A stretch of DNA of 64,000 nt, taken from an uncultured bacterium (GTDB taxonomy: Bacteria; Spirochaetota; UBA4802; UB4802). Below the pieces are notes generated by a model, which worked only from the letters and a program-made list of their open reading frames with translations, was not told the origin of the DNA and made no database searches. Of the stretch, positions 1 to 22,510 are shown one piece after another; the stretch's first letter is position 1, and every line of letters begins with the position of its first letter. Position numbers and translations under genes: made by a program. The stretch is from assembly GCA_937920495.1 (NCBI GenBank), contig CALEUQ010000039.1, positions 8,802 to 72,801 on the forward strand. Direction: 5' to 3'.

Positions 1-2536
1 AAAATAGCGATTTGGTTAAAAGCTTTTTTACAAATTTTTGATATAGGCCCAGCGTGTTATCTTTTTCAATAATAGGAATAATACCATCGCGCATTTCTTC
101 TAACCTGTATACAAGAGAATTGGAAAGCCGTTCTTTTATGCTTTTATCTTTAAATAATGAGAAGATATTGTTAAAGTTATCCCATACGGGATCATCCCAG
201 CGGGCCGCAAAATATCGCGAACCGCCCGAGCGCTTTTTCAATTCAATGGCACAGGCATTTCTGTTACAACTTGCCTTTGCCTCATTATCCAGAAGACCGT
301 GCGCTCGTGCAATCATTTCGGATAAGCTTTCCTTATGATGGCAAATGAGAATAGCAGCCGATATTGAAATCTTTTCACCCTTCCCCAGCTGAATTGCCAT
401 TTTCCCCACCTGAGGCGTAAACTTTTCTGATAAAGGAAAAACTTTTCCTTTATCATCCACAAATACAAACGGCTGGCAATAGACGTTCTGTATTTCTCTT
501 GCGGAATTCAATGCATTAAACGCTGGAAGTATTGCACAGATATCATCGCCACCAGCATATATGAGCCTTCCACGATACCGCTCAATAATTTCTTTTACAC
601 TGAAAAGTGAAAAATCACCCAGCGCCTCAGAAATTGCAGCATGAACTGCAGGAGAAAGCATCCTCTTTTTCAAAGATTGGCTTTTAAAAATATCTTCCCA
701 CTCTTTTGTATACACATCTGCAAGGGTTTTATTTTTTAGCTTATCTACAATTTCCGGATGTATCACAGTTTCCCACGTTGATGCCACGCTCTCACCATTG
801 ATGAGCGATCCCATATTGTCGCCATCCATTAAAAGTATGGCATAATACTTATCCTCTTCATACATCTTTATTTTTGTATGCACAACTTTCGCAATCTGCT
901 TTTCAAACTCATCATTTTCATGTAAATTCTGCGCTATTTCCCATTTATCATTTTTATTTTCAATATTGTATCTTTTAAAAAAATTATCAAGAGCTATTTC
1001 TGTTGTGGAGGGAAATGCGTCGGCATTGGCAAAGATATGTGATAATATATGTGAGTTTCCTTTTAGAACGATTGCAGCAAGCCTTTTCACCACACATACC
1101 GCACAAAGTTTTTCTCCCTCAGTAAAATCAAATTTCCCATACCCCTGTTTCACCTTTTCCCAGAATGCCTGTATATGCTTTGTGTATGTTGAAGCTTTCA
1201 CATCTTCAGGATATTCAACAGTATGAAGGACTTCAAACTCGCCGCATAAGTGGCACTTTTCACCATTTTCAGGAAGTCTATGAATGGTTCGCCTGCTCTT
1301 AGCAGATGCAAGCGCACTCTGCACAAGCCGATGCGTTACATTATAAAAACACCCCTGAAATGAACTGGAGGACAATTTTGCAAACTTTTGCGCCAGTTCC
1401 CAGGAAGCTTTATATACTTCTTCTTCAAAATAGTTTTTTAGGGAGTCAATATCCCTTTCCCCGATCATACCCGCACAGGCATAATTAATATCCCAGAAAA
1501 AACCTGTTTGACGTTTAAACATTTTTTCAATTGCATTTTTTTCTTTATCATTAATTGAACATTTTTTAACTATTGAAGAACATATCTGCAAAGAAAGCTC
1601 ATTCCATTTTGAAAGTATTGTTTCTTTTATTTTTTCACAAAAATCCTTAGCTTCAGAATAGGGAAGTAAAAACAAAAATTTATTTGGAAACGTGGCTATT
1701 TCGGATGGCTTTGGCAAACACGATTCCTGAATGAGCGCATCAAAGCCCGCAATACGTTTGAGATACATTTCAACCAGTGGCTGGTCAAGCAATGAAGGGT
1801 ACAATACATGATCAGGGCCAAGGTTCTCTGTCACATACCTGATGCCTTCAAATGCCAGCCATGACAGCAAAATCGATGAGGTCCAGTAATCCCGCAATTT
1901 GCGCGCTTTTGCAATAAAACCCTGCACAGGAGTTATGCTAAATACCGCAAGCGCTACTCCTTCCTGGGCTTTTGCAAGCTCCATGGAGCTATACAGCGCA
2001 GAAACAAGTGCATTGTGATGCCATATCGAGTGATCAGGCATGCGAGTATCAGCGGGTAATCTATGCCACAGCCCACCAAGTCCTGAGATATTTTTTGATG
2101 CAAGCCTGTACCGCAGCAAAAAATATAAGTAATAGAATCGATTGCGCACCCGTTCTATTTCATTGCCGCCATCAATTATTGTTATATCGTTTTCAATTAG
2201 TCCTTTAATTTCTTCGTAATTAATATCTTTAACATCTACATCTATTCCTATTCTGCTATTTGACGATACCGGATGGGTTGTTACTGGATTTTGTAAAAAA
2301 TTAACTGCGCCGCTTGTCTTTTCATCAGCTTGATACCCGGGCAACACCGCGCGTTCAAAACCAGCGGCCAACACATCTGCCGTTTTCCAGAATTTTTCCT
2401 GGCAGCTTTCCACTCCCAGCGCTTTGAGGTATTCAACTGCCCGCCCTTCATGTCCTGGTATTTTAAGCGCTTTATCAAAAGGATCGTGCAAAAAAGCTGC
2501 AATTTTATTATTCCAGTATGAAGTGTCTAAATTCAC
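1..2536 (-). CDS. cas10: Type III CRISPR-Cas Cas10/Cmr2 large subunit. It is 3'-partial because its C-terminus runs off the window start.
   Basis: The minus-strand reading frame is continuous from a GTG at 2536 (GGAGGA SD at 2542-2547) to position 1, about 845 codons. It is absent from the ORF track because it has no in-window stop. The translation shows an N-terminal HD motif (AAFLHDPFDK), a treble-clef zinc finger (CHLCGEF...CAVCVV) and a palm GGDD motif (LIYAGGDDICAI), in the canonical Cas10 domain order. Confidence 0.8.
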   Translation of the reverse strand, partial: MNLDTSYWNNKIAAFLHDPFDKALKIPGHEGRAVEYLKALGVESCQEKFWKTADVLAAGFERAVLPGYQADEKTSGAVNFLQNPVTTHPVSSNSRIGIDVDVKDINYEEIKGLIENDITIIDGGNEIERVRNRFYYLYFLLRYRLASKNISGLGGLWHRLPADTRMPDHSIWHHNALVSALYSSMELAKAQEGVALAVFSITPVQGFIAKARKLRDYWTSSILLSWLAFEGIRYVTENLGPDHVLYPSLLDQPLVEMYLKRIAGFDALIQESCLPKPSEIATFPNKFLFLLPYSEAKDFCEKIKETILSKWNELSLQICSSIVKKCSINDKEKNAIEKMFKRQTGFFWDINYACAGMIGERDIDSLKNYFEEEVYKASWELAQKFAKLSSSSFQGCFYNVTHRLVQSALASAKSRRTIHRLPENGEKCHLCGEFEVLHTVEYPEDVKASTYTKHIQAFWEKVKQGYGKFDFTEGEKLCAVCVVKRLAAIVLKGNSHILSHIFANADAFPSTTEIALDNFFKRYNIENKNDKWEIAQNLHENDEFEKQIAKVVHTKIKMYEEDKYYAILLMDGDNMGSLINGESVASTWETVIHPEIVDKLKNKTLADVYTKEWEDIFKSQSLKKRMLSPAVHAAISEALGDFSLFSVKEIIERYRGRLIYAGGDDICAILPAFNALNSAREIQNVYCQPFVFVDDKGKVFPLSEKFTPQVGKMAIQLGKGEKISISAAILICHHKESLSEMIARAHGLLDNEAKASCNRNACAIELKKRSGGSRYFAARWDDPVWDNFNNIFSLFKDKSIKERLSNSLVYRLEEMRDGIIPIIEKDNTLGLYQKFVKKLLTKSLF

Positions 2537-2574
2537 GTATTCCTCCTTTCCTTCTATGGATACGTTGAATCAAG

Positions 2575-3573
2575 TTAATAAATTGTTTTTATATCTTGAC
2601 CGGAGTGAATCTTTTTTAGAACGCCGGACATTTTTTGAGTAACGTTTGCATACTCGCCATTATCAGCAAGGGGCCCCTGATATTTATATGGCAGTACTAA
2701 AATCTTTCCCTGATATTTTCCCTCTTCTGTCTTGTTTACATGCAAAAAGCATGTTTTGGCGTGCCTCCCGTCTTTTACTTCCTCTTCTTTTGCCTGGACA
2801 ATTGGTAGGGCAATATATTTTCTATTGCCGTAATCATGTTTATTAATTGCTATCTCCTGTGATAATCGCATGGTGCGGTATGCTATGCCAATCTCAGAAA
2901 GCGCATCTTCCCATTTTTCATGCACCTTGAAAGCAAATAACTGCGATTTCTTAGAAAACGAGGTATATTTTGCTTCATCGGTTGCTATTTTTTTATGAAA
3001 TTCAATTATCGGAACATCTTTTGAATATACAGATCCAAAGCCATTTCGGCTCTTTGCTCCCATTCCACCATAATGGATGAGTGCGCTCAAGGCTTTTTCC
3101 ACTTCATCTTTTACAGCTTCTGACGTGTACATACAGTGTAGTATAAACGTGCTGCCGGGTGCGATATGCTTTCTGGACCAATTATGATTAGATGGGTCGT
3201 AGATTCCCAATCCTAAATAGGTAAAAATATCTATGTTGAAATTCTTGTTTTGCCTGACTACCTCAACCTTTTTCCCCTCTGCAATTTTATCCTTAATTTC
3301 TATTTTCTTTGTTTCTATGAACATTGAGAAAGGTGACTTTGATAGTGAATCATTCATGGCAGAGCCAAATACTGCCGATTCCTGTTTTTTTAGTTCATCC
3401 AGATTATGTATTGGATGTATTGCTCGCCACCAGAAACGAAGCAATCCTTTTATTGAGGCAGCTCTAAGTTCAGGCCTGGATATATCCGCACCCGACATGA
3501 ACAACGGAGTGACAACCTCGATTTCATAACTTTTTTTTATCCTGTAATTATATTTACCAATGTAGAACGCCAT
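2575..3573 (-). CDS. cmr1: Type III-B RAMP protein, Cmr1-like (Cas7 superfamily). It is the first gene of the cmr operon.
   Basis: This 332-aa protein starts MAFYIGKYNYRIK...VVTPLFMSGAD...ELRAASIKGLLRFWWRA, the typical RAMP N-terminal signature. It lies immediately upstream of cas10 on the same strand and is preceded by a 970-bp gene-free region. Confidence 0.6.
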   Translation of the reverse strand: MAFYIGKYNYRIKKSYEIEVVTPLFMSGADISRPELRAASIKGLLRFWWRAIHPIHNLDELKKQESAVFGSAMNDSLSKSPFSMFIETKKIEIKDKIAEGKKVEVVRQNKNFNIDIFTYLGLGIYDPSNHNWSRKHIAPGSTFILHCMYTSEAVKDEVEKALSALIHYGGMGAKSRNGFGSVYSKDVPIIEFHKKIATDEAKYTSFSKKSQLFAFKVHEKWEDALSEIGIAYRTMRLSQEIAINKHDYGNRKYIALPIVQAKEEEVKDGRHAKTCFLHVNKTEEGKYQGKILVLPYKYQGPLADNGEYANVTQKMSGVLKKIHSGQDIKTIY

Positions 3574-4542
3574 TGTTCCCCCTAAATATTAATAAAAGTT
3601 TATTAATATCTAAAATAAACTGACATCCATTACATGAAGTACGATCTTTTTCAAGGCAGGTTTGCAACTTTAGCGTCCAGCCAAATACACCACGCAAGGC
3701 TATATCTGGAAAGTTGAAAAACCGTATAGGCTTGGTTGCGTGTAAAAGTATTTTAAATTTATATAATAGTAAGGTAGCTTTTTGTGATAATATCATTCAA
3801 ACTCCTTGTCTATTACAAAAACTAACAAATGATGTCATACATAAAAACAAAAGTCAAACACTTTTCATTTTTACAAATTCTATCAACTATACTTTTCATA
3901 TCAATAACAGTACAAATTAACCTAATTATATTCACTATTTAATTTAATTTTAATTGTTATATGATAATCGTCCCTATTCCATTTCAGGCAATGACTGCAT
4001 GCAGGGCAGCCTGAACAATCATAAAAAATGGGACTCTTCTGATCTAACAACCCACCTACTTTTACTATATGAGACCCTGTTCATACACATATACACTTTG
4101 TATAATGCAACCTCTGTTTTTACATTTTGTTTTGTTCGATAGTTACAGGCTATAAAACATCATTTTCTTAGCTATCCATATATATTAATGACAGTGATAA
4201 CCACAGTTTTATAGGAGTACTTTGCTTTTTATTTTTACCCGATTATACATACAATAGATAGAAAATCACTTAAATAGACGGTGAATGCAGGTGTTATGGA
4301 TTCATAAAATTATACCAGGTATGGTATAAAGAATTGTACTTCCAATCTACCACCGATTACGGTGTAAACCTTTCACATTGTGATTCACCTGTCATACACC
4401 TGAATCGTCACGCAAAGCGATTATTATTGTACAGCATGGCTTTTAGGTTACAGCAGGATACACACCTTTTACATAAACACAATTTTAATCATCATTAATA
4501 TTTCTACTTGACACCACCCATAACCTACTTTTTCCATAAACT

Positions 4543-6126
4543 ATGGAGCAACTTCATCATCTTATTACTCAATTAAATTCAAAACCTAAAGAAGAGCGTA
4601 ATAACTTTTACCGTGACGCTATATTACCAATTATAAGTGATTTGCTGCATCAGCAATATCAACAATATCTACAATCAAACAATTACAATTCATATTTAAC
4701 TCTCATCACAACGCTTTCACATGATATCAATATCTTACTGCTTTTACTGTACAGCATTAAGCCCAAATACCTTGTGGTATTTTATACCAGCGATAAAAAC
4801 AAGTTGATTGAAAAACTATACCCCCTAACTCAATCACTACAACTCAACATAGAAACAATACAGCTTGATAGTACCAATCACAACAATAACAATAGTAAAA
4901 TAAAGGATACAATCAAACGTTACAAAAAAAACTATCATCCTGTGCTATGCGACATCACAGGTGGCAAAAAGATTTTTTCAACACAAATTGGTATACTGGC
5001 GCATTCATTAAAAACCGACATTGCATACATTGATTCATCAAAAGGTTTTTTACAGTGGGGCATACCTCTGCCCGGCACTGAAATATTATACATTCAAAAA
5101 CCTGATAACATCTTCAATTTGCTTGAAATATATCATGCCAATAAATTGCGAATACGCTTTAACAGCATCTCTTCAAATATAGAGTATGAAGCCGATGTTA
5201 ATGGAAGGTTGTACAGGTTAGGCCAGAAAAAACTAAAACCAGAGGAAATCGATAAACTGGTAGATTATGTAAACCGCTTTTACATGGATATCAATGCTTC
5301 TATCATCAATAATTCATATTCCACAATTAACATGGGGAAATATGCTCTGTCATTTAAAACCCTTCTTTTTACAAAAGAGCTCAATCATTTCGTTTCAATA
5401 CACAACAATTTAACTCATTTAGTCATAGATAATGAATTGAGTGCGTTTCCGTGGGAATTTATCTTTGCTCACTGCAACGTAAGTTTACCACTGTTTCGTA
5501 TTCCCAATCGTGATAGTAATTTCATTGAAAATAATAAATGTAATAATCAAAAAAGCATTGCATTCATCACAGGTTATGGTGAAAATCTCCCGGATTTTGC
5601 AACCACAGTACATAATATTAAATTGCTGTTATCAAAAGAAAAACAATTTTCACTGGCTACTATCACCGCAAAAAACTCATTTGAATTAAAAAAATTTTTT
5701 GCCGAATATAGTTCCAATCCCTTTACAGTGGTTATATTTTTTGGCCATGCAGCATTTGGTAACTGCAGTGAAAACACAGGCTTGATATGCCAGGATGGAA
5801 GTATTTTTTCTATTGAAGATTGTGATGTGCTAAGCGGCTCCCCACCTGAATGCATACTCATTAATTCCTGTCAATCAGCTCGCTGCAGTTTGTTTACACC
5901 CAATTCTTTTGCTCATGCTGTTATAAATTCGGGAGTTGAAACCTATATTGGGACCCATTTTTTTTTAGAATATAAACGAAGTATTTGTTTTTTACAATCA
6001 TTTCTTAAAGCTATTGCATGCAACCACACTTATGCAGATGCGTATAAATATAGCATCGATAGCATTACTCAACAATTTGGCAAAAATGATATAAGTACAT
6101 ATAATTATGTATACTACGGATATTAA
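4543..6126 (+). CDS. Fusion of a CARF-domain sensor to a caspase/CHAT-like cysteine peptidase. It is a candidate cyclic-oligoadenylate-activated protease.
   Basis: This 527-aa protein has, at residues about 75-260, a beta1 strand ending in polar residues (LVVFYTSD) and the strand-4 [DN]x[ST]xxx[RK] CARF signature (DITGGKK). Its C-terminal 190 aa has a caspase-fold pattern: KSIAFITGYG, then a His in VVIFFGHAAFG, then a Cys in ECILINSCQSA, followed by a CHAT-like tail (NSGVETYIGTHFFLEYK). There is no SD before the only possible ATG, so the mRNA may be leaderless. The gene is adjacent to cmr1. Confidence 0.6.
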   Translation: MEQLHHLITQLNSKPKEERNNFYRDAILPIISDLLHQQYQQYLQSNNYNSYLTLITTLSHDINILLLLLYSIKPKYLVVFYTSDKNKLIEKLYPLTQSLQLNIETIQLDSTNHNNNNSKIKDTIKRYKKNYHPVLCDITGGKKIFSTQIGILAHSLKTDIAYIDSSKGFLQWGIPLPGTEILYIQKPDNIFNLLEIYHANKLRIRFNSISSNIEYEADVNGRLYRLGQKKLKPEEIDKLVDYVNRFYMDINASIINNSYSTINMGKYALSFKTLLFTKELNHFVSIHNNLTHLVIDNELSAFPWEFIFAHCNVSLPLFRIPNRDSNFIENNKCNNQKSIAFITGYGENLPDFATTVHNIKLLLSKEKQFSLATITAKNSFELKKFFAEYSSNPFTVVIFFGHAAFGNCSENTGLICQDGSIFSIEDCDVLSGSPPECILINSCQSARCSLFTPNSFAHAVINSGVETYIGTHFFLEYKRSICFLQSFLKAIACNHTYADAYKYSIDSITQQFGKNDISTYNYVYYGY

Positions 6127-6139
6127 TTGATTGCTAACA

Positions 6140-8182
6140 TTAAAATGGAAACAAATACCATAAAGTATTCCATTTGATAACAGGTGTATCTTTATACTTT
6201 TCTTGCACCTTTACTAAATAGTCATACAATGTTGTACCTAAACTTTGTTGTAACACTTTGTGCCATATTTTTTTTATTTCTTCCTGCAAGCTTTTTAATG
6301 AAGCACTATCTTTAAGCGATAAAAGCCAGATATAGTCAGCTCTTATTGATAATTCTTTTGTCAGGATTGTAACATTTTCATTTTTCATGCATAACTCACG
6401 TGCATGATTATAGAAGTCATTTGCTTGCTTTATGGATGAGTTTGAACCATATAGACCATACAAAACCATTACATAATGATATATAGAATGAACAGGATAG
6501 GTTGACACTTTTACCATTGATTCAACATTTGCTTTATACTTATTAAAACACGTAGTTACTATCTCATAATACTTTTTAACATTTTTTGAATAATCGTTCA
6601 TTAGCTCTACGTAGTATATACGCAAAAAATGCAATAATGGAAATAATAATGATCTTTTTAAGATATCTTCCAGCAATTGCATATCATTGTGATATTCAAC
6701 ACCACACCCTTTTGCTAGATTTCGTCTTGCTTCTTCAAAGTTTTTTGTATACGTTTCAATTTGTGCACAGTACTGATACTGACGCATGATGTCTTCAGAT
6801 TGAACAAAGCTTTGTAGTGCTTTTTTAGAAATGTCCCTCACTTCTTCCCAGCTGCCCCCGTGTATTAAAGTGTGATACATCTTTGCTTGCAATTTTGTTC
6901 CAATAATTTCACCAAGTATGCGTGGTTGCACAACTATATTCTCATCGCTTTCACTTAGAAAACTAAATGCCTCGCTTACTTTTTTTTCAAGATTGTGCAT
7001 TTCATTGAAAGACCATTCAAATGCATACATATTGGTAAGATGCACACCATAGAGTACCTTGATACGTAACCGCGCACTTAAATAATCTAAATCAAATGGA
7101 ATTGATTTGATAAATGAGTATGCCTGTCTGTATACATCTTCAAATGTATGTACATCACCTTTATGGTTATATAAAGTAAGCAGGATCATATAACAGTAGG
7201 TATATATCCAGTGAATGTCTTCTTTACGTTTACCATAATCAGGAAGTTTTTCTTCTAAACGTGGCAAAATGTTTTCTATTATAAATAATATATCACTGTC
7301 CAAATCTTTTAAAATTCTATCTTCATTTATTGCATTATAATAAAGAGCAAGCAAAGATGAAAATATACTGTTAATATAAAAGATATTTAGTTTACATAAC
7401 TGCTCTAAAACATCAGGTAGGATTTTTTTTACCGCATTATCCTTTAAAGCGTTGTCGATTAAATTCTTTAACGCATACTCATACAGATTATCATTCATCA
7501 AATTATTAATCTTTTCAGTAATGGTTGGTGAAGCATGAATATATATTTTATGTTGTTCTATCCATATATTGAATTTTTCTACTACTTTTTGATCATACCT
7601 ATCATTACCATTTATATGCGTATCTAATCTATAAAACGTATGAACAATTGCATCAGCTAATTGTAAAAAATAATTTTTTTTACTTTCCACCTCTACCTTG
7701 GTTTTTATGTTTCTATTAGGTAATGGTGATAATACTATGGCCTTTGTAACTAATTCGTTTATTCTTTCTTTATATTCTTCTTCTTTTATTCCTACTCTAT
7801 GTTCGATAGTAACCGTTAATTCACTAATATCCTGGAATAATTTTGATTTTTTTTTAATAAATGCAAAAATTCCCTCAGCCAGCACATGCAGGTAAGTTTT
7901 AGTATCATTTATAACATAAAAACCACGCTGAGGGATAAAGATTATCGGAATAATATCATTTTGTTTACAAAAATCTATCAAATTATCTATTACAGCCAAT
8001 AAAGTTGAATTTGATAATTCGTTACCATGAAAAATTTCAGATTCTAAATTAAATTGTCTAAAAAAATTTGCTACATCGTTACTTGTTAAAATTTTGTCTT
8101 TAATAAAAAAACCACCAACAATACTACGTTTTTGTTTATAACCCTGAAATTTTCCACTTTCATCAAGGTACAAATAAGCCAT
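6140..8182 (-). CDS. DUF3800-domain protein with a large C-terminal alpha-helical (TPR-like) domain. It is the last gene of the sigma/anti-sigma operon.
   Basis: This 680-aa protein has an N-terminus MAYLYLDESGKF... and a later QLADAIVHTFYR, matching the DUF3800 (yiDESG...QlAD) signature. About 480 helical residues follow. It begins 15 nt after the anti-sigma stop, with GATGGA upstream. Confidence 0.5.
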   Translation of the reverse strand: MAYLYLDESGKFQGYKQKRSIVGGFFIKDKILTSNDVANFFRQFNLESEIFHGNELSNSTLLAVIDNLIDFCKQNDIIPIIFIPQRGFYVINDTKTYLHVLAEGIFAFIKKKSKLFQDISELTVTIEHRVGIKEEEYKERINELVTKAIVLSPLPNRNIKTKVEVESKKNYFLQLADAIVHTFYRLDTHINGNDRYDQKVVEKFNIWIEQHKIYIHASPTITEKINNLMNDNLYEYALKNLIDNALKDNAVKKILPDVLEQLCKLNIFYINSIFSSLLALYYNAINEDRILKDLDSDILFIIENILPRLEEKLPDYGKRKEDIHWIYTYCYMILLTLYNHKGDVHTFEDVYRQAYSFIKSIPFDLDYLSARLRIKVLYGVHLTNMYAFEWSFNEMHNLEKKVSEAFSFLSESDENIVVQPRILGEIIGTKLQAKMYHTLIHGGSWEEVRDISKKALQSFVQSEDIMRQYQYCAQIETYTKNFEEARRNLAKGCGVEYHNDMQLLEDILKRSLLFPLLHFLRIYYVELMNDYSKNVKKYYEIVTTCFNKYKANVESMVKVSTYPVHSIYHYVMVLYGLYGSNSSIKQANDFYNHARELCMKNENVTILTKELSIRADYIWLLSLKDSASLKSLQEEIKKIWHKVLQQSLGTTLYDYLVKVQEKYKDTPVIKWNTLWYLFPF

Positions 8183-8197
8183 AACGCAGTGTCCATC

Positions 8198-8749
8198 TTA
8201 TTTTGTTATATTAATTTTAATAATCTTTTTAAAATCAAATAGCAGCACTATATTACCTGGCTCAACTGACGAAAATTGCGCTGTATTGTTAGTAATAGTT
8301 GCTATATCAAATCTACTTCCAGTAAGCAGATGTATTTTTATACCATTTACGGGACTGTATATCACCACATCAATTGCTTTGTTATTATATATAATTTTAA
8401 CTTTAATTATTTTGTCATTATAAGGATACTCTATTTCTACTACCGGAAGTTTTTCATTTTCTAACACATATACTTGAGATTGCACTACATATTTTGAACA
8501 TACCTGAGGAATGAAAATATTATCTTGATATTTAATATCCAATATGAATGTGTCATCATCAATATTAAATTCATCTTCCATTGTTAAGAAATAATCTTCA
8601 TAAAGCTGTCTACATTGTGTGCATTCATTTAAATGATGAAACACTTTATCAATTGTTTTTTCATCAGTAATTGTACCATCAGCAACGCCCAATACCATAT
8701 CCTGCAAATCATCATTGCAATTAGATGAGTATATATGTAACTGCGTCAT
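8198..8749 (-). CDS. Zinc-binding anti-sigma factor (ZAS family, HxxxCxxC).
   Basis: This 183-aa protein has an N-terminal HHLNECTQCRQLYEDY, which is the H-x3-C-x2-C ZAS motif. Its start ATG overlaps the sigma-factor TGA stop (ATGA), indicating translational coupling. The C-terminal ~120 aa is beta-rich. Confidence 0.6.
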   Translation of the reverse strand: MTQLHIYSSNCNDDLQDMVLGVADGTITDEKTIDKVFHHLNECTQCRQLYEDYFLTMEDEFNIDDDTFILDIKYQDNIFIPQVCSKYVVQSQVYVLENEKLPVVEIEYPYNDKIIKVKIIYNNKAIDVVIYSPVNGIKIHLLTGSRFDIATITNNTAQFSSVEPGNIVLLFDFKKIIKINITK

Positions 8750-9378
8750 GACAGTATCTCCTCTTCAACTTCAGGATATTTCTTCTTAACTGCAGATAAA
8801 ATACGTTTTTTGATTTTTTCTATGCGTTCATATACGGAGGGTTGGGAAAGTTTTATCATTTGGGCAACTTCTGCTTGCGTTTTTTTATACAAAAAATACC
8901 ATGTGTAAATTAATTTATCTTTTTCATCAAACGTATCCAGTGTATTTTTAATAATATTTAAAATATCATTTTTCACAATTTCATCTGTAAAATCTATTGA
9001 TACCGGATGGAACAAATCAAAGATGCTAATATTGTCATCATCCTGCTCTTCTGATTGATTGCTGTCAATATCAACTTGTCTAATAAATTTGTTTTTTTTA
9101 TTAACATAACTAATTACACTATTACGTATTATCTTGAACAGGTAAGTTTTAAATTTACTTTTTCCCTTGTAATTGGCAATACCATTCAGAAAAAGTTTAA
9201 AACATACATTCTGGAAAATGTCTTCAATATCATCTTCATTAAGATTGTAATTTTTTACATAATTAATTTTTTTTATAGTACGTTTTATAAAGTCTAAATG
9301 TTCAATGAGCAATTGTTGTGGCGTTTTATCATCCATTATTATAAATACCATCTCAATTGGTAATATTTCATTACTCAT
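8746..9378 (-). CDS. ECF-type RNA polymerase sigma factor (sigma-70 family, regions 2 and 4).
   Basis: Region 2 is DDIEDIFQNVCFKLFLNGIANYKGKSKFKTYLFKIIRNSVISYV. Region 4 HTH is KLIYTWYFLYKKTQAEVAQMIKLSQPSVYERIEKIKKRI. The start is ambiguous: the ORF track starts at 9438, M21 is at 9378 and M35 is at 9336. Confidence 0.75.
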   Translation of the reverse strand: MSNEILPIEMVFIIMDDKTPQQLLIEHLDFIKRTIKKINYVKNYNLNEDDIEDIFQNVCFKLFLNGIANYKGKSKFKTYLFKIIRNSVISYVNKKNKFIRQVDIDSNQSEEQDDDNISIFDLFHPVSIDFTDEIVKNDILNIIKNTLDTFDEKDKLIYTWYFLYKKTQAEVAQMIKLSQPSVYERIEKIKKRILSAVKKKYPEVEEEILS

Positions 9379-9603
9379 TCTTTTATATTTACTGATGTTG
9401 TCAATAATAAAATATTTCAATATATATTTTAAATACATATACTGTACGTGACATTACCATATTACGCTAAACCTTACACGCTTTGTATTAATTAGACTGG
9501 ATTACATTGATAATTATTGTAAAATTTTGTGGATTGGTTTTTTTATTTTTTTGAATACATATACCAGGCAAGTGAAATGTCATAGTAAATTTGAATGATC
9601 TAA

Positions 9604-11664
9604 TTAATGCACCGTATTCTTCATTCTGTACGCATCACGGTCAAACTTCTCATAAATTTTTTTCTTTATAAAAAGCTCTACAATATCCTTATCCAGTTTA
9701 TTCTTATCTGCCTCTTCTTTTATTATACTCAGTGCTTGCTCTAATGTAATGGGCGGTTTATAGGGCCTGTCGGTAGCAATTAAGGCATCAAATATATCAG
9801 CAAGCGCCATGATACGTGCCTGCAGTGGTATCTGCTCACCTTTTAGTCCGTAGGGATAACCGGTGCCATCAAGCTTTTCGTGATGCTTTGCGGCAATCTC
9901 AGGAATGCGTGCAAACTCTGGCGGCCATGGGATCTTGCTTACAAAGTTATACGTATGCACCACATGGCTTTCTATTTCACGACGTTCATCATCGTTCAAG
10001 CTTCCGCGCTTTATGCTTAAATTTTTGATATAGTAATCATTGAATATTTCCAATGCATTATTTTCCACATCACAGCATTCAAGCGACTGCAACAAGGCTT
10101 GCAAATTTTTTACCTCTTTTTCAACATCCATTTCTCTTACCATTGGGTTGTTGAGCTCTATGACTTTCTGGCGCGCCTGAAGTATTGTATGCAACACATT
10201 ATCGCGTTCAGATTCAATAGCGGTAACGTGTTCAAGGCGTGCATCAAATTCAGCTTCTTTTTTGATTTCATTATATACTGCCATAGCATACTTCAACTGC
10301 TGATACCGGTACAGATATTCAAGCTTAAGCAAAATATTTTCAAGATCCTTTGGATACAATTTATGTGATTTTAAAAAGATTGCAGTGTCAATATACACCT
10401 TACCAAAGTCATGCAAAAGTGCCGCATATTCAAGCTCTTTTAATTCGGTTTCAGAAAACGTTGTTGTAGCAAATGGTCCTGATGTGTCCTCACCAATTGC
10501 CTGCGCAATCTTTAAGCACATATCAGCAACCCTGAATGAGTGGCCCGACGTGGCAACATCACGTGATTCAATGGCAGTTACCGATGCCCTGACAAATTCT
10601 TCAAACTGTTTTTGAATCTGACGTATCATGCGGTTATTTTCTATGGCGATAGCCGCCTGCGAGGCCACCGCTTCCATCAAACTTTCGTATCGTTTCTGAA
10701 ATGGCACTACTTTTGTATTAAAATCTTCTTCACACGTTAATTTAATTGAATACGCTTCATTGCCATCATACGCATTTTCAATATCTTCCTTGCTGTTAAT
10801 AAGCTGTATGACACCAATCGTTTTATTTACATGATTAATCATGGGTACTACAAGCATTGATTTTGAGCGATAGTTATGCGCCTTATCAAATGACGAATTA
10901 AATGCCACCGGATCATCAGGACCTAATTTATATACATCGGGTATATTGAGCACCTGCTGGGTTACTGCAACATACCCTGCTATTGAATTTTTATCCATTG
11001 GTATGGTGAACTCTTCATACGGCAGATCCTTTGAAAAGGTGTGCGAGTGCTTAAACCGTAAGAATTTATTCCCGTTTTTTTCTTCAACCAGATATATACT
11101 ACCTGCATCAGCACCGGTAATGGTCTTGCTTAAATGCAAAATTAATTTCAATAACCGGTCGGGATTTTTTTCAATTGATAGCGCTTTGCCTATATTAATT
11201 AACGCATCAAAATCTCTCTGAGTATCTGCAAGCTGATGTATATGCTGACGGCTTAACTTTTTAAACTCGCCATGCGAGTGGGCAATAAATTTTGCTTTGG
11301 ATATTATAAATTTAAACTCTACTTCACTGATTCCATTTCTATACAAAGCAATGACATCCTGCATCATGGTTGTAGTATATTTAGAGCCAACACATACAAA
11401 GCCCACATAAAGATTATTATTGTGTGCTTCAATATTGCGCACTATTGATTTTACTTCATCATAGTGATGCGATGGTATAATATATACCACAGCAGTACAA
11501 CTTCCAGGATCAGCATTAATTGCATGCAGTATTGCGGGCAGTTCATTATATGGAGTGTAAACGTAGTGAATATCTGCGCCACTTTCTTTAGGCAGGGCAA
11601 CAGCATCTTTCAACATACTATCTATAATAATACAGCACTGTAGTTTTAATGAGTCCACCAACAC
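9604..11664 (-). CDS. GAF-domain / HD-GYP-domain cyclic-di-GMP phosphodiesterase.
   Basis: This 686-aa protein has a GAF-like central region and a C-terminal HD-GYP signature (ALLHDFGK ... [14 protein letters not shown]). Confidence 0.8.
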
Positions 11665-11735
11665 ACTCTTAACATATATACTAATCTTAACTCACAATCC
11701 ATAAAATAAATAAAAAGTCAATGTAAAAAAAATAT

Positions 11736-13154
11736 TCATATTTCTATTTCCTGAGAAATAGTATGCAATTCTTCCTGATCGGGAGCTTGGGCAGGTTTGT
11801 GTACTTTGTCATCAAATTTCAAGAATGCTTCTGCCTCATCTGCTGTTACGGTTTGGGTTATAATCTCTTCTTCAGCAATTTCTTTTTTTGTTTCTGCCAT
11901 TTCCTCTTTAACAACCGTTGTTTCTTTTTGTGATGTTTCTTTCTTCTCTTCTTTTTCTTCTTCACCTTCAATGATAGCCATGTGGTCGCGGGATTTAAAA
12001 TATTTGGCTTTGGCAGTAAGCTGGCTGGGTTTTTCAATTATTGTTTCGCCAACGTTAAACTGCAAATTTGAATCCGACAAAAGCAGATTTGTTGTTTTTT
12101 CCATTCTGGACGCAACATATCCCAGCATCCTGAAAAGCTCATCAATACCAAAGTTAAGCGTAACCGGGTCATTGCTCTTTAATGAAACACCTTTCTCAAC
12201 AAGTTTATTTTCAAGCAGGGCATAAATCCGTGTAATTGGCTTGTCGTATAGCTGTGACTCAAGTTGTATATAGGTAAACCAAATGCGGTGCGATAGTTCC
12301 TTGAAAATAAGCTGCGTTATGGCAGGCATCTGTTCCATAACTGCAGTAAGCGATTCTTTCTTTATAGGAAGTAGTACAGTTTTGCCCCAGCTTATTGCAG
12401 CAGCATTACGCGGCTTTTCCGATATTAACGCCATCTCCCCAAACACATCGCCATCTTTTAATACAGAAAGTATTATCTCGCTTTCGCTGGATAATTTAAC
12501 AATTTTTACCCTGCCCTCTTTGATAATGTACATCTCATTTCCGGGCTCATCCTCGCAGAAGATCATCTGCTGGTCTGCATACACTTTATACGGTGCCTGG
12601 ATTACCGGAGCTATCGCCCCCTTTACCTTATCTTTAATGCTTTCCAACATTGTGGTAACTACACTGGCAAAAAGCCCCTGTGGGTACAGCTCCAGATAGC
12701 GCTTGCAGCAGTAATACGCATGGTTGTTGCTTCCATTATTATAAAAGTACCTGATGTGATTATACAGTGCTTCTTCAGGTGTTTCAAGCTCCACGCCTTT
12801 ATCCTTCAAGGCTATCATCATCTCATTATATGCTCTAAGCTCATTAGAAAAATAGTTTAACACCTTAATAGCTATCTGAGGCTTTTTTGATAAAAGATTC
12901 ATAAACTCCTGTTTGGTAAGTGATGTTATGACAGTATCCACACGTGCTATGGCAGATTCCATGCGTGGCTTATTGCATAGTGCCGCAATCACGCCAAAGA
13001 ATTCACCATCTTTCAGTATATTTTTATATATGGGAGCGTTCTTATTATAGCGATCTAACTGCACAACACCTTTATCAACGATGTACACAGTGTCCGCGTC
13101 TTCATCACCTTCTATATATATGTATGCTCCCTTTTTAAAAAGGCTCTTTTTCAT
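11736..13154 (-). CDS. Protein with tandem cyclic-nucleotide-binding (cNMP/CAP-effector) domains and an acidic/lysine-rich C-terminal tail.
   Basis: Two cNMP-binding signatures are present: YIYIEGDEDADTVYIVDKGVV...GEFFGVIAAL, and MYIIKEGRVKIVKL...GDVFGEMALISEKPRNAAAISW. The C-terminus is EEKEEKKE-rich. Confidence 0.75.
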   Translation of the reverse strand: MKKSLFKKGAYIYIEGDEDADTVYIVDKGVVQLDRYNKNAPIYKNILKDGEFFGVIAALCNKPRMESAIARVDTVITSLTKQEFMNLLSKKPQIAIKVLNYFSNELRAYNEMMIALKDKGVELETPEEALYNHIRYFYNNGSNNHAYYCCKRYLELYPQGLFASVVTTMLESIKDKVKGAIAPVIQAPYKVYADQQMIFCEDEPGNEMYIIKEGRVKIVKLSSESEIILSVLKDGDVFGEMALISEKPRNAAAISWGKTVLLPIKKESLTAVMEQMPAITQLIFKELSHRIWFTYIQLESQLYDKPITRIYALLENKLVEKGVSLKSNDPVTLNFGIDELFRMLGYVASRMEKTTNLLLSDSNLQFNVGETIIEKPSQLTAKAKYFKSRDHMAIIEGEEEKEEKKETSQKETTVVKEEMAETKKEIAEEEIITQTVTADEAEAFLKFDDKVHKPAQAPDQEELHTISQEIEI

Positions 13155-17965: not shown

Positions 17966-19204
17966 ATGCGTGCACTATTTTTGTGTTATCGTGGGAACCC
18001 GTTCTGCGGTGGACAGGGTATCTATTTATACAACCTAACCAAAGAGCTGGCACAATTAGGCGTTGAGATTGATGTCATTGTTGGTCCACCATATCCTGAC
18101 CCCATGGATGAATGGGCCACAGTGTATAAGCTTGAAAATCTTAATATGTGGGCAATAAAAACAAAACATTTCCCATATGAAAAGCTTATCAAACTTTATA
18201 AGCCATGGCATTTTACGGATTATGTGTTAACCCGCTTCCATATTTTTCCTGAAATGGAAACATTCAGCATGAAGGCTTTTTTTCTGCTACGAAAACTCCT
18301 CAAAGAAAGGCATTATGACATCATTCATGATGTGCAGTGTTTAGGCTGGGGACTTTTGCCAATGAAAGGCTATGGCATACCTATTGTTACCACCGTACAT
18401 CATCCACTAACCAAAGACCGTGAAGCAGATTTTCTTGTTGATAACACCATGTGGGAAATGGTGTGTACTATATTGTTTTATCCTTTGACCATGCAGAGAA
18501 TTGTAATTAACAGGCTTGACAGGGTTATCACCTCTTCACAGGAAGGGGTAAAAGCGCTCTATGAAGCATTCAATCTTTCACCAAAGAAGGTTTCAGTAGT
18601 GTATAACGGTATGGATGTGGAAGTATTCCGCAATACCGGCCAACCACGCAAAGAAAACACCATCCTCTTTGTAGGCAATACCGAAGACCACAAAAAGGGC
18701 CTGCGTTACCTTTTTGACGCTATGACCATGCTGCCCGAAAATATCAAGCTCATTATTGTTGATGATGGGCCTCCTAAACGGCTCACCGCATGGGGATGGA
18801 TACAGGAACGCGGCCTTGAAAAAAGAGTGACATTTACCGGCAAGGTTGACTTGGGTACACTGGTACATCTTTACAGTACCAGCACCATATTAGTAATGGC
18901 ATCACTCTATGAAGGTTTTGGACTGCCTGCAGCTGAAGCTATGGCCTGCAATACGCCTGTGGTGGTAACCAGTGCCGGTTCACTACCCGAGGTGGTTGGC
19001 GACTGTGGTATTATAGTTCCACCAAAAGACCCTGTGGCATTAAAAGAAGGCATACTGAAACTTTTGCATAACAAAGCACTGCGTGAAGAATTAGGCAAAA
19101 AGGGAAGGAAACGAGTGGAAGAAAATTTTGCATGGCCGGTAGCAGCAAAGAATACACTTGCAGTGTACCATGATGTCATTGAGCAGTACAGGAGCAGTTT
19201 ATGA
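17966..19204 (+). CDS. GT4-family glycosyltransferase, paralog 1.
   Basis: The N-terminal CYRGNPFCGGQGIYLYNLTKELAQLGVEIDVIVGPPYP pattern resembles BshA/MshA GT4 enzymes. A C-terminal Glycos_transf_1 pattern EGFGLPAAEAMACNTPVV is present. Confidence 0.8.
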   Translation: MRALFLCYRGNPFCGGQGIYLYNLTKELAQLGVEIDVIVGPPYPDPMDEWATVYKLENLNMWAIKTKHFPYEKLIKLYKPWHFTDYVLTRFHIFPEMETFSMKAFFLLRKLLKERHYDIIHDVQCLGWGLLPMKGYGIPIVTTVHHPLTKDREADFLVDNTMWEMVCTILFYPLTMQRIVINRLDRVITSSQEGVKALYEAFNLSPKKVSVVYNGMDVEVFRNTGQPRKENTILFVGNTEDHKKGLRYLFDAMTMLPENIKLIIVDDGPPKRLTAWGWIQERGLEKRVTFTGKVDLGTLVHLYSTSTILVMASLYEGFGLPAAEAMACNTPVVVTSAGSLPEVVGDCGIIVPPKDPVALKEGILKLLHNKALREELGKKGRKRVEENFAWPVAAKNTLAVYHDVIEQYRSSL

Positions 19205-20439
19205 AAATATGTCTGTTAAGTTATAGAGGAAATCCATACTGTGGTGGTCAGGGAATTTACTTAATGTATGTGGCCAGGGAGCTTGCAAAACTTGGGCACG
19301 AAGTGCATGCTATTGTGGGCCCACCATACCCATTTCCTATAGAAGGCGTTACCTACCACTATATCGACAACCATAATTACTTCAACATAAAGGATTTTGT
19401 AAAACCTCACAAGCCTTTTGCCACATTGGAGCCTTTAAATTTTTACGAATTTACGGCATCAAAGTTTGGTATATTTCCTGAAATTGAATCATTCTCAATC
19501 AGAGCATACTGTAAATTAAAAGAGCTTTTGAAAACACATTCTTTTGATATCATACATGACAATCAATGCTTAGGATACGGATTTTTATTAATAAAACAAT
19601 TTGGTATCCCTTTTGTGTCAACAATCCATCATCCCTTAACCATTGACCGCTCAACATGGTTTGAATACCCATCAAGCTTTTTCCTTAAAACCAAACGCAT
19701 CCTGTATTATCCGCTGGTGATGCAGAAATATGTAGCAAACAAGATGGACCTTATTATCACAGTATCACATGATTCAGCCAGAGAGATATATAAAGCATTT
19801 GGGGTACCACTTGAAAAACAGCGTGTAGTATACAATGGGATGGATAGTTCTATCTTCTATCCTATAAAAACAAAAAAAAGGCCCAATAGTCTGATATTTG
19901 TAGGTAATGTGGAAGACCGCAAAAAAGGCGTTATCTATATGCTTAAGGCCTTAACCCTTACAAAGCATAAAGTCCATCTGACCATAGTTGATGGAGGAGC
20001 ACCAAACCGCAACTATGTGCCAAAATGGATTGATAAATTTCAACTCAATGATCGCATCACATTTACGGGCAAGATACCACTGGATAAGCTGGTGAAGTTA
20101 TACGCCGAAACTCAGATAGCACTTTGCCCATCACTGTACGAAGGATTTGGATTCCCCGCAGCCGAAGCCATGGCATGCGAGCTTCCTGTTATTGCTGCAA
20201 CTGGTGGCGCCTTGCCTGAGGTTGTTGGCCAGCATAATAAAACCGGTATACTGGTACCACCCCGTGACCCATACGCACTGGCACAGGCCATAGACTACCT
20301 TATTGAAAATCCTGGTGTGCGGGAGCGCATAGGTAAAGCTGCCCGAACGCGTGTGCTTGAAACATTCACATGGGAAAATGCAGCAAAACAGATGGTGAAA
20401 GTTTACCAGGAGGCAATTGATGCTTACCGTGGACTTTGA
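19201..20439 (+). CDS. GT4-family glycosyltransferase, paralog 2 (a tandem duplicate of the preceding gene).
   Basis: The N-terminal YRGNPYCGGQGIYLMYVARELAKLGHEVHAIVGPPYP and C-terminal EGFGFPAAEAMACELPVI match its neighbour. It overlaps the neighbour by 4 bp. Confidence 0.8.
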   Translation: MKICLLSYRGNPYCGGQGIYLMYVARELAKLGHEVHAIVGPPYPFPIEGVTYHYIDNHNYFNIKDFVKPHKPFATLEPLNFYEFTASKFGIFPEIESFSIRAYCKLKELLKTHSFDIIHDNQCLGYGFLLIKQFGIPFVSTIHHPLTIDRSTWFEYPSSFFLKTKRILYYPLVMQKYVANKMDLIITVSHDSAREIYKAFGVPLEKQRVVYNGMDSSIFYPIKTKKRPNSLIFVGNVEDRKKGVIYMLKALTLTKHKVHLTIVDGGAPNRNYVPKWIDKFQLNDRITFTGKIPLDKLVKLYAETQIALCPSLYEGFGFPAAEAMACELPVIAATGGALPEVVGQHNKTGILVPPRDPYALAQAIDYLIENPGVRERIGKAARTRVLETFTWENAAKQMVKVYQEAIDAYRGL

Positions 20440-21184: not shown

Positions 21185-22144
21185 ATGGCTCTGACCCCAA
21201 CACCCGTACGAACATTACAACATTACCTGGAAGAAGCCATCTTTGTGGGACAGGCCCACCGGCTTGGCGTGTTTAAAGAACTTTATACAAAGCCAGATAC
21301 ATCAGATGGCCTTGCAAAAAGAATGCAATTTGACACACGCGCAACATGGATACTTTTAGAAGCGCTTGTTGAATTGGGATACCTTGAAAAAAATAATGAA
21401 ATCTATAGTCCCACAGAATATTGCACACATCATTTAATTGACGAAAAAAACGATGAATACGAGGGTAACTTTTTACAGTTCTTACTGTATCTCATCAACC
21501 CGTGGCGCACATTGCCTCATGTACTAAGTACCGGAAGTCCTGATGAATCCAGCTTTAAGGAATTATCCATGCATGATTTTATCAAAGGTATGGATTCCCC
21601 CTGGAAAAAGAAATTAGCGCCTGAAATAGTTGACCTGTGTATTGCACATTGCTCTGACCCCACAACCTGCATTGACATAGGTGGTGCCCCCGGAACAATT
21701 GCCAGAGAATTTGTGCGCAGGGGAATTAAAACAATAGTATTTGATCTGCCTCAATCACTAGCAATAACTCAAGATGAGTTGACAACCATCCCCAATATAG
21801 AAGTAATAGCAGGCGATGCAACAGTTGCATTACCGGATCGCAAGGTTGATATAGCATTTTTAGGAAATCTGTGCCATGGGCAAGGGCCTGAAGATAATCA
21901 GAAAATAATAACCATGTGCTATGATAGCCTTAATAAGAATGGTATCATAGCTATATTTGATAACTTACGAAACGAAAGTTATTTAGGTGCAACGCTTGCT
22001 CTTCACATGTTAACCCAAAGCAAAAAGGGCAATATCTATTCACGCCAGGAATATTTTGGATGGCTGGGCAATGCCGGCTTTAAAACACCTAAAGTATACC
22101 AGCTATCCGATAGGGCATGGCAGCTTATTATTGCAAAAAAATAA
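21185..22144 (+). CDS. SAM-dependent O-methyltransferase (Methyltransf_2-like, with an N-terminal dimerisation/wHTH domain).
   Basis: The protein shows CIDIGGAPGTIAREF...IKTIVFDLPQ, with an N-terminal wHTH-like region. Confidence 0.7.
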   Translation: MALTPTPVRTLQHYLEEAIFVGQAHRLGVFKELYTKPDTSDGLAKRMQFDTRATWILLEALVELGYLEKNNEIYSPTEYCTHHLIDEKNDEYEGNFLQFLLYLINPWRTLPHVLSTGSPDESSFKELSMHDFIKGMDSPWKKKLAPEIVDLCIAHCSDPTTCIDIGGAPGTIAREFVRRGIKTIVFDLPQSLAITQDELTTIPNIEVIAGDATVALPDRKVDIAFLGNLCHGQGPEDNQKIITMCYDSLNKNGIIAIFDNLRNESYLGATLALHMLTQSKKGNIYSRQEYFGWLGNAGFKTPKVYQLSDRAWQLIIAKK

Positions 22145-22510
22145 AGAGGGGTACATAAGCCGGATTCTGTTTTGACAGCCATCAATCTTGCATGCATGTT
22201 GCCATGCATGTCTATGCGGCCTACCCGCAACCTTGAGCGGGCAACTCTGATAACGGTTGCCTATTTGGCCTTGCACCGGATGGGGTTTGCACTGCCACCT
22301 GCATTACTGCAGATGCGGTGAGCTCTTACCTCGCCTTTTCACCCTTACCCCACTATGGGGCGGTATATTTTCTGCTGCACTTTCCGTCGCCTTACAGCGC
22401 CCGGGCGTTACCCGGCATCCTGCCCTGTGGTGTCCGGACTTTCCTCACAACAATGCACACACCACACTGTGTATGTACATTGTGCGCATGCCGTCTGTAC
22501 CCCTCTTACT
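22142..22510 (-). ncRNA. rnpB: RNase P RNA (bacterial type A), M1 RNA.
   Basis: The minus-strand read gives AAGAGGGGTACAGACGG...GTGAGGAAAGTCCGGACACCACAGGGCAGGATGCCGGGTAACGCCCGGGCGCTG...GGTAAGGGTGAAAAGGCGAGGTAAGAGCTCACCGC...GTGCAAGGCCAAATAGG...GCGGGTAGGCCGC...ACAGAATCCGGCTTATGTACCCCTCTT. This matches the E. coli P4, P10-12, P15 and P18 consensus blocks. The P1 5' and 3' ends are complementary and followed by a U-tract. The track ORFs 22257-22603 on + lie inside it and are spurious. Confidence 0.85.

Follow-up and report, generated by a model that had tools for sequence, protein, structure and literature searches.

CRISPR-linked systems that couple a protease to a sigma factor have been described as CalpL–CalpT–CalpS, as Craspase with CASP-sigma, and as SAVED-CHAT/PCaspase, and the genes switched on by them are unnamed or tentative. 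The CalpL/CalpT/CalpS preprint names no CalpS-activated gene (10.1101/2024.05.08.593097), and the SAVED-CHAT preprint leaves the targets of PCc-sigma as an open question, with Cas1 only a possible target of CASP-sigma (10.1101/2023.06.23.546230). Genes joining a DUF3800 domain to TPR-like repeats were catalogued as CRISPR auxiliary genes, under the names 'UAS-94 (DUF3800_TPR)' and 'Cas12_DUF3800_TPR_UvrD_TPR', by Altae-Tran et al. (PMC10910872); the same source ties 'TPR-DUF3800' to a sub-branch of Cas12a2 and predicts an RNase H fold, and a further report describes DUF3800-TPR as an accessory of Cas12a3 loci (PMC13594972). The architecture is thus on record as UAS-94 and as Cas12a2/a3- and VI-F-linked, and these reports give no function for it (PMC10910872, PMC12669027, PMC13594972). 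The term 'CARF-CHAT' occurs in no paper of the literature searched. Here we analyze a stretch of 64,000 nucleotides (nt) from contig CALEUQ010000039.1 of an uncultured Spirochaetota bacterium (positions 8,802 to 72,801; the window), in which a DUF3800-TPR gene encoding 680 amino acids (aa) stands behind the genes of a sigma factor and a putative anti-sigma factor and faces the gene of a CARF-CHAT protease beside type III-B CRISPR genes. The reading that we favor, and to which we give about an even chance, is that the two-domain protein is a nuclease effector and the cargo of a four-gene module, amplified by a cascade leading from cyclic oligoadenylate (cOA) through the CHAT protease and the anti-sigma factor to the sigma factor. 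Homologous loci used for comparison carry L numbers.

The gene and its two domains lie in the window as follows.

6140..8182, minus strand: DUF3800-TPR gene, 680 aa (ATG-started open reading frame (ORF), Pfam DUF3800, homologue clusters, AlphaFold2 (AF2) model).
7538..8182, minus strand: N-terminal RNase H-fold (DUF3800) domain, aa 1 to ~215.
6143..7522, minus strand: C-terminal TPR-like alpha-solenoid, aa ~221-680 (~460 aa).

The protein begins with MAYLYLDESGKF and matches Pfam DUF3800 (PF12686) over aa 3-185 with 31.7 bits (E 2.9e-7), above the gathering threshold of 21 bits. Both DUF3800 motifs, DxSG and QxxD, are present, the former as LDESG at aa 6-10 and the latter as QLAD at aa 174-177 within QLADAIV (aa 174-180). 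The AF2 model has a predicted local distance difference test score (pLDDT) of 87.9, with low-confidence loops at aa 11-20, 190-200, and 410-420, and fold comparison of the model indicates an RNase HII-like N-domain followed by a long TPR-like helical domain. An earlier sequence-only reading of this DNA had claimed a DUF3800 signature and such a helical C terminus, and both are borne out; it did not mention that the gene lies on the minus strand or that DUF3800-TPR is already catalogued as a CRISPR auxiliary (PMC10910872, PMC12669027). No Pfam TPR model matches the 680-aa protein by sequence, and searches of the PDB with the full-length and N-domain profiles found nothing meaningful, including no solved RNase H, so that the assignments of a DUF3800 nuclease fold and of TPRs rest on fold. 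Likewise, no model in PADLOC, NCBIfam, or PHROGs matches it. According to the model, the protein joins a nuclease domain of RNase H fold, predicted to be metal-dependent, to a long TPR-like domain, which probably gates or targets the nuclease. The 680-aa protein belongs to Pfam DUF3800 and, by architecture alone, to the catalogued DUF3800-TPR auxiliary group. The TPR-like domain also resembles the RRNPP receptors (Rap/NprR/PlcR/AimR) at fold level only; the protein was not assigned to these peptide receptors, as its output domain has an RNase H fold and neither a helix-turn-helix domain nor a peptide gene was identified.

A profile search of 1.84 billion representative proteins, with clusters formed at 50% identity, yielded a DUF3800-TPR family of 714 clusters at E<=1e-3 (366 at E<=1e-30), among which the close homologues of the 680-aa protein make up ~11-12 clusters. 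Most members are 670-730 aa long and are matched end to end, which makes the two-domain architecture an established and fairly large family. One member gave no tblastn match in a plasmid collection. Across 82 members sharing ~20% identity, D7, E8, G10, F12, G24, H52, G104, D177, and G342 are fully conserved, while S9, T96, Y97, R129, Y137, E143, H340, N384, and R467 are nearly invariant. In 20 diverse N-domains the invariant set comprises D7, E8, S9, G10, E143, and D177, and D7, E8, E143, and D177 are also invariant in the subfamily of the window protein. Judged from the alignment, an Asp-Glu pair that ends strand 1 together with later acidic residues is the RNase HII pattern. The predicted structure has the fold expected of RNase H type 2, and the four residues D7, E8, E143, and D177, invariant in the N-domains, may correspond to its DEDD catalytic tetrad, but without a sequence-level match to a solved RNase H. 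A DEED variant has been noted for retron-linked DUF3800 (PMC7736814). The helical domain carries invariant polar motifs of its own, namely NH-x-G, VH-x2-N, and D-x2-RQYQYR (R467-QYQY-R472), whose conservation suggests that what they contact, be it a ligand or an interface, is itself conserved and not a changing target.

The genes on either side of the DUF3800-TPR gene are listed below.

8746..9336, minus strand: ECF-type sigma factor (Pfam Sigma70_r2/r4; NCBIfam sigma70-ECF).
8198..8749, minus strand: putative zinc-binding (ZAS-type) anti-sigma factor, 183 aa (zinc motif, position, weak model scores).
4543..6126, plus strand: CARF-CHAT protease, 527 aa (PADLOC CARF models, E 1.6e-18; Pfam CHAT, E 4.8e-8).
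2575..3573, minus strand: Cmr1, a type III-B RAMP protein (PADLOC Cmr1, E 6e-34; NCBIfam cmr1, 70 bits).
2..2569, minus strand: Cas10/Cmr2, cut by the window start, 856 aa open, GGDD intact (NCBIfam Cas10/Cmr2, 232 bits; cut-off 79.4).

On the minus strand, the sigma gene overlaps the anti-sigma gene by 4 nt, and the DUF3800-TPR gene follows after a gap of 15 nt, a distance that ranges from 6 to 60 nt in other loci. A scan found no terminator-like site between the genes of the sigma operon. From this arrangement, the DUF3800-TPR gene is predicted to be the last gene of the sigma/anti-sigma transcription unit and the sole non-regulatory gene in it. It converges on the CARF-CHAT gene, with 13 nt between the two stop codons. 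The sequence-only reading had placed the gene at the end of this operon, 15 nt after the anti-sigma gene, and convergent with CARF-CHAT beside type III genes; the coordinates and the presence of Cmr1 and Cas10/Cmr2 agree on each of these points.

With 86 bits, the sigma factor is above the cut-off of 42.9 for NCBIfam sigma70-ECF. Its mechanical ORF, 9438..8746 (230 aa), is probably overlong by ~34 codons; the conserved start is M35 at 9336, and the alignment of orthologues (n=10) starts at MDDKTPQQ. The 183-aa protein encoded next has C11 and H39-x3-C43-x2-C46, all invariant in 8 orthologues, and weak matches to RsrA (aa 11-51, E 0.005) and, in 2 of the 8 orthologues, to zf-HC2 (E 0.03). Its AF2 model consists of a three-helix N-domain, with helices spanning aa 13-59, and a C-terminal beta-sandwich, and contains two low-confidence linkers at aa 58-64 and 92-99. 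The features expected of the ZAS type are present, namely HxxxCxxC with an upstream Cys, a helical N-domain, and a position directly after an ECF sigma gene, and we regard the protein as a putative ZAS-type anti-sigma factor. In the CARF-CHAT protein, the CDITGGKK motif and the G401-H402/C443 dyad are invariant in 13 homologues; because the CARF motif and the His/Cys dyad are kept in this way, the CARF sensor and the CHAT protease look functional. At 27-33%, the GC content of the module falls below the 39% found elsewhere in the window, as would fit a mobile island.

Two promoter-like signals precede the sigma gene.

9491..9519, minus strand: ECF-type promoter-like motif CAATAA-N16-GTCTAAT, a conserved block upstream of the sigma operon.
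9377..9404, minus strand: sigma-70-like promoter match TTGACA-N16-AAGAAT, 10/12 positions, consensus match only.

When the regions upstream of sigma are aligned, one conserved block stands out from diverged AT-rich DNA, C[AT]ATA[AT]-N16-[GA]TCTAAT, and it keeps its position in every orthologous locus. A GTCT-type -10 element (GTCTAA) with 16-nt spacing is typical of ECF promoters. Within the 64-kb window the bipartite motif is matched strictly only at 9491..9519, and eight sequences totaling 187 kb contain 11 strict matches, eight of them upstream of sigma and three upstream of an operon formed by a small gene and CARF-CHAT (L002, L003, and L010). This small membrane-type gene (112-141 aa) is found upstream of CARF-CHAT in L002, L003, L008, and L010; tblastn detected none at 3400-4700 of the window, which also lacks the corresponding copy of the ECF-type motif in the gap between cmr1 and CARF-CHAT. 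That gap, at 3574-4542 (970 nt, 31% GC), is AT-rich and has no ORF with homologues, and a TACTTGACA block ~30 nt upstream of the CARF-CHAT start in the window is shared with L001 and L015. In L026 and L028 the sigma gene is preceded by a 93-aa ORF, and a copy of the motif lies upstream of that ORF. The TTGACA block is conserved in L001, L002, L006, L008, and L015; it lies inside the 5' extension of the mechanical sigma ORF and may be a basal promoter. A generic scan for promoters and terminators was uninformative in this AT-rich DNA, with 44 promoter-like sites against 43.6 expected and no terminators. From the positions of the motif, we infer that the sigma factor autoregulates its own operon, thereby controls DUF3800-TPR, and in some loci also feeds back on the protease.

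The same four genes, with sigma, anti-sigma, and DUF3800-TPR on one strand and CARF-CHAT convergent, occur in L001, L002, L003-5, L006/7, L008, L010, and L015, and the module recurs in at least 10 Spirochaetota-type loci, between which the identities of its proteins fall to 38-43%. The sequence-only reading had staked its proposal on homologues of this type keeping company with sigma/anti-sigma or type III genes, and they do so: wherever a close homologue of the 680-aa protein could be assigned to a contig, sigma, anti-sigma, and CARF-CHAT are present, and distant relatives accompany Csm6/Csx1 and Csx20-Cas6. A search with CARF-CHAT returned 14 clusters, and at L026-29, whose homologue is the most diverged but one (43% identity), the full set of four genes is again present. 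The module of these loci adjoins Zorya-like genes (ZorA-like, OmpA-like, and DUF8245), and neither a cas gene nor a cyclase lies within 10 kb. Core genes flanking the module, a GAF-HD gene and a cNMP (cyclic nucleotide monophosphate)-binding gene, are common to most loci, while L010 and L026 have different flanks; the shared flanks indicate that most module loci are orthologous insertions in related Spirochaetota. In the window, these flanking genes, at 9604-13154, encode one protein that combines GAF with an HD-GYP-type domain (HD_5) and another with two cNMP-binding domains, and most related loci also keep the same genes downstream of them. The genes beyond CARF-CHAT vary from III-B cmr in the window to III-A csm in L001, cas1/cas2 in L002, and a Dna2-like SF1 helicase in L003, L008, and L010, and the module site appears to be an integration hot spot with differing adjacent cas or defence cassettes.

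This Dna2/Upf1-like helicase (AAA_11/AAA_12) is encoded at 14313-17753 of L003, 14268-17687 of L008, and 1418-4879 of L010, and also at 9676-12048 of the unrelated, distant L019. An SF1 helicase beside DUF3800-TPR genes echoes the 'UvrD' partner reported for Cas12-linked DUF3800-TPR. In three lineages, a fervidolysin-like S8 peptidase with a partner of 100-136 aa stands beside the module (L003, 19048-21324; L010, 10738-12986; L030, 3963-6182), an arrangement that might add another layer of proteolysis, much as in the SAVED-CHAT/PCaspase cascade.

L030 (1-7813), the locus in which CARF-CHAT has diverged furthest, encodes the sigma factor at 36% identity, the anti-sigma factor at 39% with HxxxCxxC kept, the S8 peptidase at 41%, and CARF-CHAT at 40%, all on the same strand. 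DUF3800-TPR is missing; the anti-sigma gene is followed by a hairpin and then by genes for a HAD hydrolase, a PRTase-like protein (214 aa), and a DprA-like protein. A motif variant, CTATAA-N16-GTCTCAT, lies upstream of sigma, with look-alikes before the cargo genes. Judged from its gene content, L030 looks like a cargo swap in which the regulatory core was kept and the downstream enzyme exchanged, and the genes of its cassette may form another effector set governed by the same switch. Because the core is kept while the enzyme is swapped, the position of DUF3800-TPR can be read as an effector slot, and a structural role is argued against.

The wider family was examined in ~11 loci (3 genome and 8 metagenome) of the ~700 clusters, a sample that is not statistical. 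These distant relatives share 20-27% identity, and 4 of the ~11 loci are CRISPR-linked. In Desulfofarcimen acetoxidans (L011), a III-B locus with arrays has at its end Csm6/Csx1 and, immediately behind it, Dtox_2970, and in L014 the relative stands directly before Csm6. In L018 (153-3758), Csx20 (E 9.5e-36) and Cas6 (E 7e-30) come immediately after the homologue, which further ties the family to type III/I accessory genes. In L023 (5096-13469), DUF3800-TPR is split into two ORFs, probably by a frameshift or as a pseudogene; on one side lie a methyltransferase and an SNF2 helicase as a pair, and on the other a STAND NTPase of 1504 aa and then a CRISPR array of 13 repeats, without visible cas genes. 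Adjacency to CRISPR-Cas therefore recurs in the window, L001, L002, L011, L014, L018, and L023, but not in L013, L016, L025, or L026. Defence islands surround other relatives: in L019 the neighbors are an SF1 helicase and a TPR protein, and in L014 and L017 they are VWA/PP2C/kinase-type genes. In the 1300-aa protein P0110, a NACHT/STAND NTPase and a TPR region are fused ahead of the C-terminal part of DUF3800-TPR, a fusion that, by its domain content, links the family to STAND-type immune sensors.

Building on the gene order, the domain folds, the conserved residues, the conservation of the module, and the position-specific promoter motif, we propose the following scheme, in which every biochemical step, including the identity of the protease substrate, the function of the promoter, and the substrate of the nuclease, is inferred. 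The Cmr complex would recognize foreign RNA, whereupon Cas10 would make cOA. Binding of cOA to the CARF domain of CARF-CHAT would turn on the caspase-like CHAT protease, which would cleave the zinc-motif anti-sigma factor, probably in a flexible linker. The freed ECF sigma factor would then transcribe from its own CWATAW-N16-GTCTAAT promoter and raise the output of the sigma/anti-sigma/DUF3800-TPR operon, and in loci with a second copy of the motif the CARF-CHAT operon would be amplified as well. The accumulated nuclease would attack nucleic acid and stop the invader or the cell, the closest analogy for its substrate being RNA in RNA/DNA hybrids. The sequence-only reading had left the role open between an executioner, a protease substrate, and a scaffold. 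We favor a regulated effector because the catalytic-type residues are conserved, an ECF-type promoter motif precedes the operon, and the gene is replaced by other enzymes in L030.

Several observations weigh against this cascade. The anti-sigma assignment depends on a motif, gene position, and weak matches (E 0.005-0.03), and the N-domain profile has no counterpart in sequence among solved RNases H. The promoter motif is AT-rich, and shuffled sequences give ~2.4 chance matches in the same 187 kb, scattered at random; moreover, its eight copies upstream of sigma are orthologous and therefore count only once as evidence of conservation. In L026-29, where cas genes are absent within 10 kb of the module, no source of an activating nucleotide is evident. 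Relatives in L013, L016, and L022/L025 stand alone among housekeeping genes, and since distant relatives partner Csm6 and Cas12a2/a3 without a protease or sigma factor, the core activity of the protein should need no cascade. Finally, cotranscription with sigma and anti-sigma from a probable basal promoter means that the protein would be present before induction, so that transcription would not be its sole control; control after translation, through the TPR domain, is likely as well.

These same relatives lend some weight to a lesser possibility that we nevertheless take seriously, namely that DUF3800-TPR is a parallel auxiliary nuclease or sensor whose TPR domain senses a common product, such as cleaved RNA or stalled complexes, and which shares a transcript with the sigma pair without depending on CHAT or sigma. 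Relatives of 20-27% identity occur with Csm6/Csx1, Csx20-Cas6, and CRISPR arrays but without sigma, anti-sigma, or CHAT; the architecture is tied to Cas12a2/a3 and VI-F, which involve no cOA signaling (PMC10910872, PMC12669027, PMC13594972); and the family-wide conservation of H340, G342, N384, and R467-QYQY-R472 points to one conserved ligand rather than to locus-specific partners. However, in the subfamily the linkage to sigma, anti-sigma, and CARF-CHAT is complete across 38-64% identity, varied contexts, and gaps of 6-60 nt, and the exchange of other enzymes into the same slot in L030 fits a module-specific cargo. That the protease itself gates the effector, either because CHAT cleaves an inhibitory TPR part or because an anti-sigma peptide binds a Rap/PlcR/AimR-like TPR groove and switches the nuclease on, we hold to be unlikely. 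The same TPR motifs are kept in relatives without the protease, so a protease-derived ligand cannot be general; in addition, the TPR fold matches are generic, no cleavage motif is definable from sequence, and the low-confidence loops at aa 11-20, 190-200, and 410-420 are not specifically conserved.

A still smaller probability goes to a scaffold or regulator in which catalysis is irrelevant and the TPR domain assembles sigma, anti-sigma, and protease, in the manner of the TPR part of TPR-CHAT/Csx29 or of Csx31, or adjusts the cascade. Unlike Csx29, CARF-CHAT has no TPR domain, and a separate TPR protein is encoded beside it, and the homologue cluster counts are similar (12 for DUF3800-TPR, 14 for CARF-CHAT, and 13 for anti-sigma). 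However, the conservation of the catalytic-type residues D7, E8, E143, and D177 in subfamily and family alike is unexpected for a pure scaffold, and L030 keeps sigma, anti-sigma, and CARF-CHAT without DUF3800-TPR, so the core of the cascade does not need the protein. It is highly improbable that we are dealing with a housekeeping RNase H-like enzyme or a chance neighbor: while the fold resembles RNase HII and some distant relatives are found among metabolic genes, the protein matches no RNase H family and no NCBIfam model by sequence, its distribution is rare and patchy, its GC content is below that of the flanks, and its linkage to the defence module is complete in the subfamily. A role as a ring nuclease was set aside, as relatives accompany Cas12a2/a3 systems, which do not use cOA.

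The regulated-effector reading can be extended, in a form that we consider rather doubtful, to a complete self-amplifying circuit from CRISPR to transcription with its output gene in cis. The sole induced enzyme would be a TPR-gated RNase H-fold nuclease, and its invariant TPR pocket would recognize a conserved product left over when RNA-targeting CRISPR systems act, for instance the end of a cleaved RNA, an RNA/DNA hybrid, or a small peptide or nucleotide. If this were true, one family would serve as the second-stage executioner for type III, Cas12a2/a3, and Cas13 systems.

Elsewhere in the window, no CRISPR array was found by TRF or by a k-mer spacing scan. Rfam scans of the window at gathering thresholds and of 3400-9700 at permissive E-values revealed no DUF3800-associated RNA motif, and none was found at 7 loci of distant relatives; the noncoding RNA partnership of other DUF3800 genes (PMC5737381) therefore does not apply here. 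The only Rfam match is a bacterial RNase P RNA of class A at 22141-22506 on the minus strand (301 bits). A 19-nt unit, ATCGCGCTTTCGGGGAACT, is repeated in tandem at 23516-23602 (4.6 copies, 98% matches) in an otherwise unremarkable region, and two 412-aa family-4 glycosyltransferase paralogues at 17966-20439 are adjacent with a 4-nt overlap and are kept in related loci.

Comparing the protein with the catalogued UAS-94 and Cas12-linked DUF3800-TPR genes, the two-domain architecture is the same, the published signature genes, one of which lies at 818-3053 of JAGBKJ010000834 in GCA_017934005.1, encode 646-745 aa compared with 680 aa here, an RNase H fold is predicted for the DUF3800 part, and the genes adjoin RNA-sensing CRISPR systems. 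However, the partners in the window are a III-B locus, CARF-CHAT, and sigma/anti-sigma rather than Cas12a2/a3 or Cas13, and the gene is embedded in a sigma operon. The module thereby puts the DUF3800-TPR family in a type III cOA-signaling context with defined partners, which may help explain its role in Cas12a2/a3, type VI-F, and UAS-94 loci. With RNase HII/H2/H3 and the DUF3800 of type VII retrons (PMC7736814), the protein has no sequence-level relationship, and it has an additional TPR-like domain of 460 aa; it has no reverse transcriptase partner and no Rfam DUF3800 RNA motif nearby.

At the level of the whole system, there is a likeness to CalpL–CalpT–CalpS (PMC11417357, 10.1101/2024.05.08.593097), in which a cOA sensor-protease and an anti-sigma/ECF-like sigma pair likewise stand beside type III genes and the output is transcriptional, a likeness of shared logic, not of shared ancestry. 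The sensor is CARF here and SAVED there, and the protease is a caspase-like CHAT here and Lon there; the protease of the window has no Lon or SAVED match. The anti-sigma factor of the window has a zinc HxxxCxxC motif and a beta-sandwich, and searches against all PDB chains by phmmer and profile (E up to 10) gave no relevant match, neither to CalpT nor to any other chain; moreover, a predicted nuclease gene lies within the sigma operon of the window. Craspase (type III-E gRAMP/Cas7-11, TPR-CHAT Csx29, Csx30, Csx31, and CASP-sigma) also links a CHAT protease to the release of an RpoE-like sigma factor and includes a TPR element. However, the protease of the window would be activated by cOA through CARF instead of by direct binding of an effector complex, the TPR is on a separate nuclease protein, CHAT is fused to CARF, and there are no Csx30/Csx31 homologues. 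On the Craspase sigma model (NCBIfam CAS_III-E_sigma), the sigma factor scores 42 bits, below the cut-off of 100, and with no TPR-CHAT fusion and with Cmr1 and Cas10 as effectors, the locus was not classed as a type III-E Craspase module. The III-B gene cluster of Haliangium ochraceum with SAVED-CHAT/PCaspase (10.1101/2023.06.23.546230) shares a cOA-activated CHAT protease and a sigma factor, but there the sensor is SAVED and not CARF; the window has no second caspase, kinase, or protease inhibitor, and the anti-sigma factor is the likely direct substrate.

Set beside these systems, whose switched-on genes are unnamed or tentative, the window opens three things to direct testing, namely a putative promoter, a gene that may belong to the regulon, and a possible effector activity, and its compact CARF-CHAT/anti-sigma/sigma switch from cOA to transcription could serve as a tool. 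Overall, the proposed logic is that of CalpL/CalpT/CalpS and of Craspase with CASP-sigma, yet the locus belongs to neither system: it has a CARF sensor, a CHAT protease, an unrelated anti-sigma factor, and a sigma factor below the III-E cut-off. What is new relative to them is the combination of a CARF-CHAT protease with a ZAS-type anti-sigma/ECF sigma pair and the inclusion of a predicted nuclease gene in a sigma operon that a conserved ECF-type promoter motif precedes.

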